Shown here one piece after another: positions 4,774-8,176 of a stretch of DNA of 22,976 nucleotides. A program made the translations under genes and the position numbers. The notes beneath the pieces are model-generated. The model was not told the DNA's origin, searched no databases, and saw only the letters and a program-made list of their open reading frames with translations. Each line of letters opens with the position of its first letter. The first letter of the stretch is position 1. The stretch is from the IMG/VR virus record IMGVR_UViG_2563366959_000008. One strand, given 5' to 3'. The stretch comes from a virus. Lineage: Duplodnaviria; Heunggongvirae; Uroviricota; Caudoviricetes.

Positions 4774-6673
4774 TATGATGGCTGCCGTTTCGGTTGCGCT
4801 GCAGCCTCTGGTCAGGGTTGTACCAATGACGGCAGTTGAATGGGCTGATCAAAATTATTATCTGCCTAAAGAATCTTCATATGGTGAGGGAGAATGGAAA
4901 ACGCTGCCATTCCAGATCGCCATTATGAACTGTATGGGTAACGACCAGGTTCGCACGGTTAACCTGATTAAATCTGCCCGTGTTGGCTATACAAAGATGT
5001 TGCTGGGGGTGGTCGGGTATTTTATTGAGCATAAATCCCGAAACAGTCTGCTTTTTCAGCCCACGGATTCTGCCGCTGAAGATTTTATGAAGTCTCACGT
5101 GGAGGCGACGATTCGGAACGTGCCATGCCTGAAAGACCTTTCCCCATGGCTGGGTCGTAAACATCGTGACAATACTCTCACGCTGAAACGCTTTTCATCG
5201 GGCGTCGGTTTCTGGTGCCTGGGCGGCGCTGCCGCCAAAAACTACCGTGAAAAATCCGTGGACGTGGTCTGCTATGACGAACTTTCCTCGTTCGAGCCGG
5301 ATGTCGAAAAAGAGGGCTCGCCAACCCTGCTGGGGGATAAGCGTATTGAGGGGTCGGTGTGGCCAAAATCCATTCGCGGCTCGACGCCTAAAATCAAAGG
5401 CACCTGCCAGATCGAAAAAGCCGCTAACGAGTCGGCGCATTTTATGCGTTTTTATGTGCCCTGCCCGCACTGTGGGGAGGCGCAGTATCTGAAATTTGGC
5501 GATGAGTCCACGCCTTTTGGGCTTAAATGGGAGAAGGACAGCCCCGAAAGTGTTTTCTACCTCTGTGAACATCATGGCTGCGTGATCCATCAGTCTGAAC
5601 TGGACCAGAGCAACGGGCGGTGGATCTGTGAAAACACGGGCATGTGGACCCGTGACGGTCTGACGTTTTTCAGCGCCCGGGGTGATGAAATTCCGCCGCC
5701 GCGCTCCATCACGTTCCATATCTGGACGGCGTACAGTCCGTTTACCACCTGGGTACAGATAGTCTATGACTGGCTGGATGCACTGAAAGATCCCAACGGC
5801 CTGAAAACCTTTGTGAACACCACGCTGGGCGAGACCTGGGAAGAAGCCGTGGGCGAAAAACTCGATCACCAGGTACTGATGGATAAGGTCGTGCATTACA
5901 CGGCGGCGGTACCTGCCCGGGTGGTTTATCTGACGGCGGGCATTGACTCGCAGCGAAACCGTTTTGAGATGTATGTCTGGGGATGGGCACCGGGAGAGGA
6001 AGCTTTTCTGGTGGATAAAATCATCATTATGGGCCGTCCCGATGAGGAAGAGACGCTGTTACGTGTGGATGCGGCGATCAACAAAAAATACTGCCATGCA
6101 GACGGAACCGAAATGACCATTTCCCGTGTCTGCTGGGACACCGGGGGGATCGATGGTGAAATTGTCTATCAGAGGTCAAAAAAACACGGTGTTTTCCGGG
6201 TGCTGCCGGTAAAAGGCGCATCTGTCTATGGCAAGCCGGTGATCACCATGCCGAAAACCCGCAATCAGCGGGGCGTGTATCTGTGTGAAGTGGGGACGGA
6301 CACCGCAAAAGAAATTCTCTATGCCCGTATGAAAGCCGATCCCACTCCTGCGGATGAAGCCACGTCGTATGCCATCCGTTTTCCTGATGATCCGGAGATT
6401 TTTTCGCAGACAGAGGCGCAGCAACTGGTCGCGGAAGAGCTTGTGGAGAAGTGGGAAAAAGGAAAGATGCGTCTGCTGTGGGATAACAAAAAGCGGCGTA
6501 ACGAAGCGCTGGACTGCCTGGTGTATGCCTACGCGGCATTACGTGTGTCCGTGCAACGCTGGCAGCTTGATCTGGCTGTACTGGCAAAATCCCGGGAAGA
6601 AGAGACGACCCGGCCAACCCTGAAAGAACTGGCAGCGAAGCTGTCCGGAGGAGTGAATGGTTACAGTCGCTGA
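4745..6673 (+). CDS. A: Terminase large subunit (gpA-like)
   Basis: Start at ATG 4745 (MNISEQQ…) rather than the upstream ORF-track start; long collinear matches to recalled lambda gpA (VEWAD.NYYLPKES, KSARVGYTKMLLGV, KNYREKSVDV, SPFTTWVQIV, TTLGETWE, ICWDTGGID). Confidence 0.95.
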   Translation: MNISEQQLNNMMAAVSVALQPLVRVVPMTAVEWADQNYYLPKESSYGEGEWKTLPFQIAIMNCMGNDQVRTVNLIKSARVGYTKMLLGVVGYFIEHKSRNSLLFQPTDSAAEDFMKSHVEATIRNVPCLKDLSPWLGRKHRDNTLTLKRFSSGVGFWCLGGAAAKNYREKSVDVVCYDELSSFEPDVEKEGSPTLLGDKRIEGSVWPKSIRGSTPKIKGTCQIEKAANESAHFMRFYVPCPHCGEAQYLKFGDESTPFGLKWEKDSPESVFYLCEHHGCVIHQSELDQSNGRWICENTGMWTRDGLTFFSARGDEIPPPRSITFHIWTAYSPFTTWVQIVYDWLDALKDPNGLKTFVNTTLGETWEEAVGEKLDHQVLMDKVVHYTAAVPARVVYLTAGIDSQRNRFEMYVWGWAPGEEAFLVDKIIIMGRPDEEETLLRVDAAINKKYCHADGTEMTISRVCWDTGGIDGEIVYQRSKKHGVFRVLPVKGASVYGKPVITMPKTRNQRGVYLCEVGTDTAKEILYARMKADPTPADEATSYAIRFPDDPEIFSQTEAQQLVAEELVEKWEKGKMRLLWDNKKRRNEALDCLVYAYAALRVSVQRWQLDLAVLAKSREEETTRPTLKELAAKLSGGVNGYSR

Positions 6674-6800
6674 ACTACAGGCGCTACGTCAGGCGCGCCT
6701 TGATTTATTAACCGGTAAACGGGTGGTGTCTGTCCAGAAAGATGGTCGCAGAATTGAATATACGGTGGCTTCTCTGGATGAGCTTAACCGGGCGATCTGA
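6657..6800 (+). pseudogene. W: Head-tail joining gene W, 5' part (codons 1-46), truncated by the IS insertion
   Basis: ATG 6657 (GGAGGAG upstream) overlaps the 3' end of A; MVTVAELQALRQARLDLLTGKRVVSVQKDGRRIEYTVASLDELNRAI then TGA contributed by the first 3 bases of the IS. Confidence 0.8.
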
Positions 6801-6839
6801 ACCGCCCCGGGTTTCCTGGAGAGTATTTTATCTGTGAAC

Positions 6840-7730
6840 TCAGGCTGCCAGATCATTATTTCCGATGGAAGCATAATAAGCTTTTTCTGCTTCTGCCGGA
6901 GGAATATGGCCCAGCCTTTCCAGCAATCGTCGATTGTTATACCAGTCCACCCACGTTAGTGTGGCCAGTTCCACTTCTGTCCGGTTTTTCCAGCTCTTAC
7001 GGTGTATTACCTCCGCTTTGTAAAGACCATTGATGCTCTCAGCCATCGCGTTGTCATACGAGTCGCCAGTACTCCCTGTTGATGCCAGTAATCCGGCTTC
7101 CTTAAGCCGCTGCGTGTAGGCCAGCGATACATACTGAGAACCTTTATCACTGTGATGGATTGTGCCGGACGGCCGACGGGCCCACAACGCCTGCTCCAGT
7201 GCATCCAGCACGAATGTTGTTTCCATGGATGATGAGACCTGCCATCCCACGATGTATCCGGCGAACACATCAATGATGAACGCCACATAAACGAAGCCCT
7301 GCCATGTGCTTACCCAGGTAAAATCAGCCACCCACAACTGGTCTGGACGTTCTGCCACGAACTGACGGTTTACGCGGTCGCATGCGGCAACGGCTTTCCG
7401 GCTGACGGTAGTGCGGACCTTTTTACCCCGGAGAACACCGGCAAGTCCCATAACTGCCATGAGACGTGCCACAGTGCATCTGGCCACTCTGATACCTTCC
7501 CGTAACAACTGACACCAGACTTTACGCACACCGTATACCTGGTGATTTTCATCGTATACGCGCTGTATCTCTTTCTTCAGCCAGTCATCGTGCTGCGCAC
7601 GGGCACTGCGTTTATCCGGATGATGTCGCTGTTGCTGACAATGGTAATACGTTGACGGGGCAATATGCAGTTCGCTGCATACCGGTCCGACCCCGTACTG
7701 CTCACGCAGCTTATCCAGCAGTGGCATCAT
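6840..7730 (-). CDS. IS3-family transposase OrfB (DDE catalytic domain), expressed as an OrfAB fusion by -1 frameshift
   Basis: 296 aa with an rve-type integrase core (…[31 protein letters not shown]…[11 protein letters not shown]…[18 protein letters not shown]…); overlaps orfA in the -1 frame. Confidence 0.9.
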
Positions 7731-8053
7731 TTTTTCCAGAGGCGGTCGAACTCCGCCTTCGCAAAATAAGCGGAAGCCTGGCGAAGGATATCGTTACTGC
7801 GGCGCAGTTCACGATTTTCACGTTCCAGCTCTTTCAGACGCTGACGTTCAGCGCTGGTGAGCCCACCATCACCGCCCCCGGTATCCCGCTCATGCTGGCG
7901 AACCCAGACACGCAGAGTCTCCGGCGTACAGCCAATCTTTGGGGCAATGGAACAAATTGCCGCCCACTGTGAGTCATATTCATCCTGACTTTCCAGAACC
8001 ATACGAATCGCCCGCTGACGGACTTCGGGGGAAAAACGAGTATTTTTAGTCAT
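7727..8053 (-). CDS. IS3-family transposase OrfA (helix-turn-helix plus leucine-zipper part)
   Basis: 108 aa [22 protein letters not shown]…[32 protein letters not shown]; ends in an A6 run (plus-strand T6 at 7730-7735) that can act as the -1 frameshift site into orfB. Confidence 0.9.
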
Positions 8054-8107
8054 CCTGTTTACCTCTTTCTCAGGGAGTTTAGTCTCCAGGATTTCCGGGG
8101 CGGTTCA

Positions 8108-8176
8108 ATCAATGATGCGGAGTCGGTACTGGGGACAACCCGACGTCGCCGTCGTCCGCTGGGAGTGAGGTTATGA
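8108..8176 (+). pseudogene. W: Head-tail joining gene W, 3' remnant (codons 47-68) downstream of the IS
   Basis: After removing the IS and one ATC copy, the frame continues NDAESVLGTTRRRRRPLGVRL* with its stop overlapping the portal start (TTATGA), restoring a 68-codon W-like ORF. Confidence 0.75.

Follow-up and report, generated by a model that had tools for sequence, protein, structure and literature searches.

In the lambdoid prophage described here, the gene for the head-tail joining protein gpW is interrupted by an insertion sequence (IS), which raises the question of whether the interruption is a genuine transposition event and, if so, whether the prophage can still complete its heads. 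"The window" refers throughout to the whole stretch of DNA that was analyzed, 22,976 nucleotides, which corresponds to scaffold KE137100.1 of the source assembly GCA_000408445.1. It takes in 23 kb of a prophage with phage-21-type head genes; the immunity, replication, and integrase genes and the distal part of J lie outside it and may be sound or contain further defects. We give a probability of about 90% to the account as a whole, in which a recent insertion of an IS629-group element truncates gpW and would leave the prophage defective in head completion. The features on which this account is based are collected in Table 1.

Table 1. Positions of the interrupted W gene, the inserted element, and the flanking genes in the window
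Feature	Position	Strand	Remarks and basis
Terminase large subunit gene A, 642 aa, intact	4745..6673	+	Pfam GpA_ATPase and GpA_nuclease; 100% protein identity to L004
Truncated W' ORF, 47 codons and then the TGA of the IS	6657..6800	+	Pfam gpW, 55.7 bits, profile positions 3-44 of 66
Target-site duplication, left copy	6795..6797		ATC, codon 47 of W
IS element, complete, 1310 bp, IS3 family, IS629/IS1203 group	6798..8107	-	Transposase antisense to the phage late operon
Terminal inverted repeat, orfB end of the IS	6798..6838		Opens with TGA, the premature stop of W'; inverted-repeat detection
IS orfB, 296 aa from its ATG	6840..7730	-	HTH_21 and rve integrase core (also rve_3); ORF and Pfam
ALIL frameshift-stimulating pseudoknot of the IS	7656..7772	-	Rfam RF01497, 121.5 bits (gathering score 50), full length
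IS orfA, 108 aa	7727..8053	-	HTH_Tnp_1; ORF and Pfam
Terminal inverted repeat, orfA end of the IS	8067..8107		Inverted-repeat detection
Target-site duplication, right copy	8108..8110		ATC
3' remnant of W, codons 48-68 and TGA	8111..8176	+	
Portal gene B, 530 aa, intact	8173..9765	+	Pfam Phage_portal_2, 336 bits; 100% identical to L004

The truncated gene starts with an ATG at 6657 that is preceded by a good Shine-Dalgarno sequence (GGAGGAG), and it shares 17 nt with the end of A, whose stop codon lies at 6671-6673. The same 17-nt overlap of A and W is found in the phage-21-type relatives. IS bases 1 to 3, at 6798-6800, provide the in-frame TGA. Removal of positions 6798-8110 produced a 207-nt ORF with 68 codons and a TGA at 8174-8176. 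This stop overlaps the start codon of the portal gene, an ATG at 8173 (ATGA), and the restored product matched Pfam family PF02831 at 77 bits (cut-off 22.5) over profile positions 3-66 of 66. Between a stop at 7970 and the 3' remnant of W, no ATG, GTG, or TTG is in frame, so the remnant is not expected to be translated. The right flank still provides the portal gene with a Shine-Dalgarno sequence of its own, GGGAGTGAGG, but the contiguity of the portal gene with W translation is lost. The preliminary description had placed a 1310-bp IS3-family element with terminal inverted repeats and an ATC duplication at 6798-8107, with W starting at 6657 inside the end of A, the IS end supplying its stop, and a restored 68-codon ORF of the length of lambda W overlapping the portal start; all of this was reproduced, coordinates included, except that the truncated gene has 47 sense codons and not 46. 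Removal of the IS thus gives a gene of about 68 codons between a large terminase and a lambda-type portal, as in the gpW family, whereas the complete fold with its portal-binding C-terminal arm is missing from a product that stops at residue 47. We infer that the locus is now a disrupted rather than a functional member of the family.

The inserted element is exactly 1310 bp long, begins with TGAACCGCCCCGGG, and finishes with CCGGGGCGGTTCA. Its 41-nt terminal inverted repeats are 76% complementary and pair perfectly over the outermost 13 nt. From its sequence it belongs to the IS3 family, IS629/IS1203 group, a type common in Escherichia coli. The length is within the range of about 1.2 to 1.5 kb known for IS3-family elements, the ends are of the imperfect TG...CA type (TGAACCGCCCCGG...CCGGGGCGGTTCA), and the ATC duplication falls within the 3 to 4 bp typical of the family. 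The overlapping orfA (HTH) and orfB (DDE/rve) with a -1 frameshift, characteristic of IS3-family elements, are represented by the domains, by the pseudoknot, and by an open fusion, since reading-frame analysis showed that a -1 shift at any point in 7792-7729 gives an open 404-aa OrfAB; a 404-aa gene call for OrfAB is also present in L005. In its 1310-bp length, TG...CA ends, 3-bp duplication, orfA (HTH) and orfB (rve/DDE) arrangement, -1 frameshift, and ALIL pseudoknot, the element resembles the IS629/IS1203/IS3411 group found in E. coli strains that produce Shiga toxin and in Shigella. It is also nearly identical to a named copy of the group, the Z1834 copy of E. coli O157:H7 labelled "IS3-like element IS1203 family" by PGAP, with 96.2% identity over 1310 nt in a gapless alignment. 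The 50 nt by which the two copies differ fall in the range of 4 to 5% reported between IS629 subtypes (PMC3271280). In four O157:H7 genomes 62% of the IS629 copies sit in prophages (PMC3271280), a location shared by the element described here. Copies 100% identical to the 1310-bp element were found in other E. coli genomes at many different sites and, together with the intact ORFs, suggest that it is transposition-competent. A simple scan of the IS for terminator-like sites, which could exert polarity on the portal and the genes downstream, found no excess over shuffled sequence.

The insertion of the IS into W is real and not a matter of chance, because the element is 100% identical to other copies and because the 998-nt reconstructed empty site was found, 100% identical and in one ungapped piece, in no fewer than 19 complete E. 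coli genomes, with W annotated there as intact. The relatives' empty site has only one ATC, compared with the two that flank the IS here. The reconstructed site also shows 97.5% DNA identity to the head region of phage 21 (gene 3), and further IS-free loci encode a 68-aa gpW between A and the portal. The preliminary description had proposed aligning both flanks to IS-free relatives, and the alignment yielded a continuous W. One might nevertheless suspect that W is truly intact and that an IS contig was misplaced into it at scaffolding, given that the source is a 2013-era short-read scaffold and that IS629-type elements are multicopy and a classic source of misjoins. However, the junctions are base-perfect and carry a 3-bp direct target duplication, which misassembly does not create. 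In an independent Logan assembly of SRR640146, a contig extends from A across W' and the same left junction and stops after 27 nt of the IS; this contig is the same in four samples. As this read assembly supports the left junction only and not the right-hand one, some room is left for an assembly artefact, which we regard as extremely improbable.

A 2.1-kb query spanning the IS was compared with 5,426 complete E. coli genomes, and the identical insertion was absent from all of them. Seven matches of high coverage were rejected as instances of it, since they are either IS copies at different places within A, W, or B or, in H17, a rearrangement. An exact search with the 37-nt left junction found no match in genome, viral, and metagenome contig collections. 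Two short contigs with the same 47 residues (L007 and L008) were considered as further examples of the junction but were rejected, since their endings, ...GCGATCA and ...GCGATCAA, are those of an intact W at a contig end. Partial W products of 46 to 62 aa from draft assemblies were likewise found to be assembly breaks rather than IS junctions.

Outside W, the prophage is well preserved. The other 27 genes of the window, holin through the beginning of J, all have their full length, with J cut by the scaffold end, as the preliminary description had stated for the morphogenetic ORFs. Of these genes, 23 are 100% identical at the protein level to those of the IS-free prophage L004, and at the nucleotide level there are zero differences from an IS-free prophage over about 17 kb (window positions about 2,000 to about 19,000). 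The absence of differences over this distance suggests that the insertion is recent, and the earlier proposal of a recent event fits these data.

To what extent the truncation affects gpW can be judged from the lambda protein. The restored W aligned with lambda gpW (1HYW/8K38) without gaps and in the same numbering (E value of 1.2e-14), and it is like lambda gpW in its 68-aa length, its PF02831 assignment, the A-W-B gene order, and the overlap of its stop with the portal start. In contrast to lambda gpW and phage 21 gene 3, W is split here, which limits the product to residues 1-47. Helix 2 of lambda gpW comprises residues 37-54, and the C-terminal arm, residues 55-68, binds portal residues 320-324 (PMC10721106). 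By the gap-free alignment, the truncation, which costs the protein its final third, deletes helix-2 residues 48-54 and the whole of the C-terminal arm. W is essential in lambda, where its knock-down lowers the efficiency of plating to 3e-5 (PMC10695390), and the last three residues of gpW have been reported as critical, according to the title of Maxwell et al. (2000), cited in PMC3208555. Because the truncation removes the end of helix 2 and the portal-binding arm of an essential protein, loss of W function is very likely. A contrary reading is that the 47-residue product suffices, or that W is dispensable for a phage-21-type head. The product does retain the N-terminal helix and the beta-hairpin, including the equivalent of the DNA-clamping Arg32, and still scores 55.7 bits on Pfam gpW. 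Against sufficiency, helix 2 breaks off at residue 47, short of its end at 54, the lost arm includes the C-terminal residues just mentioned, and about 1,000 contigs encode the full 68-aa form compared with 3 for the 47-aa form. Together with the requirement for W in lambda, this makes a sufficient product highly improbable.

We therefore return to a loss of gpW and propose the following course of events. A probably transposition-competent IS629-group element entered W recently at codon 47/48, duplicating the target triplet ATC. Translation of W now ends after residue 47 at the in-frame TGA of the IS start, giving a product in which helix 2 is seven residues short and the C-terminal arm, expected to dock the adaptor ring onto the portal, is missing altogether, and the 3' remnant, having no start codon, would remain untranslated. 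DNA packaging into heads is presumably still possible, but sealing of the portal, addition of gpFII, and joining of tails would be beyond the prophage's own genes. On these good grounds, the prophage probably cannot make infectious particles by itself. Such particles would require that a co-resident prophage provide gpW or that the IS be excised.

The words "by itself" matter because genomes with this head module hold a median of two copies, so that W could come in trans. Among the 1,864 complete genomes with this A-W-B segment, it occurs at a median of 2 places per genome and a maximum of 5, and draft assemblies often break inside W, producing the partial products at contig ends noted above, as expected when several similar prophages are present. 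The insertion could thus be real and yet have no phenotype, if co-resident lambdoid prophages induced at the same time supplied near-identical gpW and the IS-bearing genome was still packaged infectiously. A particle rescued in this way would, however, carry a W-defective genome with an extra 1.3 kb, and the defect would reappear in any new host lacking a helper. We consider rescue in trans a tentative alternative, unlikely but to be taken seriously.

The second route, excision, would make the IS a reversible lock rather than a sign of simple decay, with precise excision promoted by the IS-excision enhancer (IEE) restoring W in some cells and particle production being phase-variable. There is a precedent in O121:H19, in which IEE-driven excision of IS600 restores lacZ (PMC9397093). 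In the present case, deletion of the IS and one ATC gives a perfect W, and the transposase reading frames are intact. However, there is no sign of mixed populations or of selection for such a switch, and we consider a reversible lock improbable. If it were true, the second independent insertion of an IS629-family element in W, in O157:H7, could hint at recurrent selection on W.

That second insertion, in O157:H7 Z1834, involves the same kind of IS, which lies at W codon 66/67 with a GTG duplication and again provides the stop through its TGA. The same kind of IS was found in A in SW070919, DEC5E, and TB354 and in the portal gene in O157:H7 2-6-2 and EPSSH018. The positions of these disruptions differ from that of the W insertion described here, and they are independent events. 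Several of the prophages concerned are damaged further, with a frameshifted A or a truncated Nu1, whereas the prophage described here is otherwise intact within the window. We considered whether the IS is invariably antisense to the late genes but dropped this apparent rule, since the search joined same-strand pieces only and was blind to the other orientation.

The IS insertion in W is thus real but ordinary prophage damage. It is a clean, recent, and precisely reconstructable case of a known pattern, in which IS629-type elements, mostly in prophages of pathogenic E. coli, knock out morphogenesis genes. It matters chiefly for annotation and strain biology, and an open question would be touched only if reversibility or rescue in trans were shown. 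The 47-aa "phage tail protein" of the public record is the front part of a split gpW gene, and a probable head-completion defect should be recorded for the prophage despite a visible gene set that is otherwise complete. The prophage also carries cargo genes, namely sodC and a perC-like gene.

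The element that splits W, the gpW-family head completion gene between A (terminase large subunit) and B (portal), begins with TGAACCGCCCCGGG and ends with CCGGGGCGGTTCA. Its termini form an imperfect inverted repeat of 41 nt, of which the outer 13 nt are perfect, and its extent and ATC target duplication agreed with the preliminary description. The front of the split gene (W′) starts 17 nt ahead of the large terminase gene stop and has 47 sense codons, rather than the 46 originally counted, before ending at a TGA made up of the element's first three bases, the source proposed earlier for the premature stop. 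In silico removal of 6798-8110, that is, the element and one ATC, restored the predicted 68-codon ORF, with its stop overlapping the portal ATG; the orphaned 3′ part of W contained no in-frame ATG, GTG or TTG. The restored product matched Pfam gpW (77 bits) and aligned without gaps, and with identical numbering, to lambda gpW (PDB 1HYW, 8K38). It is flanked by a GpA-type large terminase on one side and a lambda-family portal on the other, in a head module of the phage 21 type (97.5% DNA identity with phage 21 across gene 3 and the adjoining genes).

Features of the interrupted W region, the inserted element, the cargo genes and the comparison locus
Feature	Position	Strand	Details
W′	6657-6800		ATG at 6657
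IS629-like element	6798-8107		exactly 1310 bp, by sequence inspection
ATC target duplication	6795-6797 and 8108-8110		both IS flanks
W′ stop	6798-6800		TGA
Portal gene start	8173		ATG
Restored W stop	8174-8176		TGA
IS OrfA		-	108 aa, HTH_Tnp_1
IS OrfB		-	overlaps OrfA; HTH_21 and rve integrase core
ALIL frameshift pseudoknot			in OrfA/OrfB overlap; Rfam RF01497, full-length, 121.5 bits (gathering score 50)
PerC-family regulator gene	3241-3555	+	cargo, intact; between lysis and packaging genes
sodC (Cu/Zn superoxide dismutase)	21194-21718	-	cargo, intact; between I and J, opposite strand
IS at E. coli O157:H7 Z1834 locus (NZ_CP062702.1)	3456-4765		in homologous W, codon 66/67; GTG target duplication

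Comparison of the flanks with IS-free relatives, a check set beforehand as one that could refute the insertion, used a 998-nt empty-site query in which the flanks were joined and one ATC was kept. The flanks rebuilt a continuous W in at least 19 complete E. coli genomes, including O103:H2 12009 and O45:H2 and O121 strains, where the query matched at 100% identity in a single ungapped piece and where a "phage head-tail joining protein" was annotated at the site in every case. Matches with at least 80% query coverage were found in 1,859 genomes, almost always with an identity of 95% or higher, and other IS-free loci encoded a 68-aa gpW between A and the portal. A large protein collection held the intact 68-aa form on about 1,000 contigs and the 47-aa form on 3.

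The 47-aa product was found in NCBI assembly GCA_000408445.1 on scaffold KE137100.1, which matches the window at 100% identity across 8,144 nt; the coordinates place the window at the end of this scaffold (1,457,575 nt), as its final 22,976 nt. In the independent Logan assembly of SRR640146, a contig that was the same in 4 samples extends across A and W′ and ends at the same junction, 27 nt into the element. A false join made during scaffolding is very unlikely because the independent assembly has the same junction and the target duplication is perfect. The insertion at 6798 was present in 0 of 5,426 complete E. coli genomes, and exact junction searches of three contig collections gave no match. 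Two further short contigs encoding these 47 residues were rejected as evidence of insertion, since their ends were intact-W sequence. In many draft E. coli assemblies contigs end within the 3′ half of W, leaving partial products of 46, 47, 50, 54, 55, 58, 60, 61 and 62 aa which can pass for truncations; the near-identical head modules of several prophages probably create a repeat boundary there.

The ORF domains and the pseudoknot, together with a -1 shift that, wherever it falls in the OrfA/OrfB overlap, fuses the two ORFs into an uninterrupted 404-aa protein and with near-identical copies elsewhere, identify the element as IS629-like and of the IS3 family, as first labelled. Copies 100% identical over its 1310 bp occur at many other sites on E. 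coli chromosomes and plasmids, and an O157:H7 copy assigned by annotation to the IS1203 family was 96.2% identical without gaps; IS629 subtypes differ by 4-5% and IS1203 is an IS629 isoform (PMC3271280). From its sequence the element looks transposition-competent.

The other morphogenetic ORFs had been described as intact and the insertion as recent, and both statements were borne out within the window. Against the IS-free prophage of strain SCPM-O-B-7615 (L004), all 27 other genes (holin, lysozyme, Rz, perC-like, Nu1, A, B, C, D, E, FI, FII, Z, U, V, G, T, H, M, L, K, I, sodC and small ORFs) were full length, 23 of them with 100% protein identity. J is open over its visible part; it is cut off by the scaffold end at 22976, presumably a consequence of tail-fibre regions recurring from prophage to prophage. 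Not one nucleotide difference from L004 was found between about 2,000 and about 19,000, so the insertion is young relative to point mutation. The total of 149 mismatches and 4 gaps was clustered mainly in K-I-sodC-J, with 150 of the 153 differing positions within K, I and sodC or at the beginning of J (19600-22976), a concentration which indicates a recombinational mosaic boundary close to the L/K junction.

In the lambda virion, gpW forms a 12-mer adaptor ring beneath the portal, with a bundle of helices (residues 4-22 and 37-54), a hairpin (23-36) and a C-arm (55-68) that attaches to residues 320-324 of the portal through beta-sheet augmentation (PMC10721106). W is essential in lambda, its knock-down giving an efficiency of plating of 3e-5 (PMC10695390), and the last three gpW residues are critical according to the title of Maxwell et al. 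2000, cited in PMC3208555. In the gap-free alignment to lambda gpW, the W′ product breaks off within helix 2 and has no part of the C-arm. The best reading is that this prophage would be able to fill heads and unable, with only its own genes, to complete them. The median number of copies of the region in genomes carrying this head module is two, so gpW could be supplied by a co-resident prophage. Excision of the element with one ATC would also restore a perfect W; the IS-excision enhancer (IEE) can assist in excising IS629-type elements (PMC9943667), and in O121:H19 lacZ is restored when IEE drives the excision of IS600 (PMC9397093). The portal gene retains its own Shine-Dalgarno sequence and, in a simple scan, terminator-like sites were not enriched in the element; polarity on downstream genes is not predicted.

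Prophages are the main location of IS629-type elements, with 62% of the copies across four O157:H7 genomes lying there (PMC3271280), and the W insertion is a cleanly documented further instance of a well-known form of prophage inactivation, with no new mechanism. At the Z1834 locus, an independent IS1203/IS629 copy, 96.2% identical to that in the window and in the same orientation, likewise supplies the TGA that ends W, but W there has 66 aa and lacks only the last two residues. This head-module segment is repeatedly hit by IS629-family elements, since five further complete E. coli genomes carry one in A (three genomes) or B (two). The IS-spanning search joined same-strand pieces only, and its counts therefore support no claim of a hot spot or orientation bias. 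In a close relative, strain E105 (NZ_CP071375.1), W is intact, a same-type IS lies upstream of the holin gene, and the homologue of tail gene M (19941-20270), with its internal stop, has a pseudogene annotation; here the route to a defective prophage is a different one.
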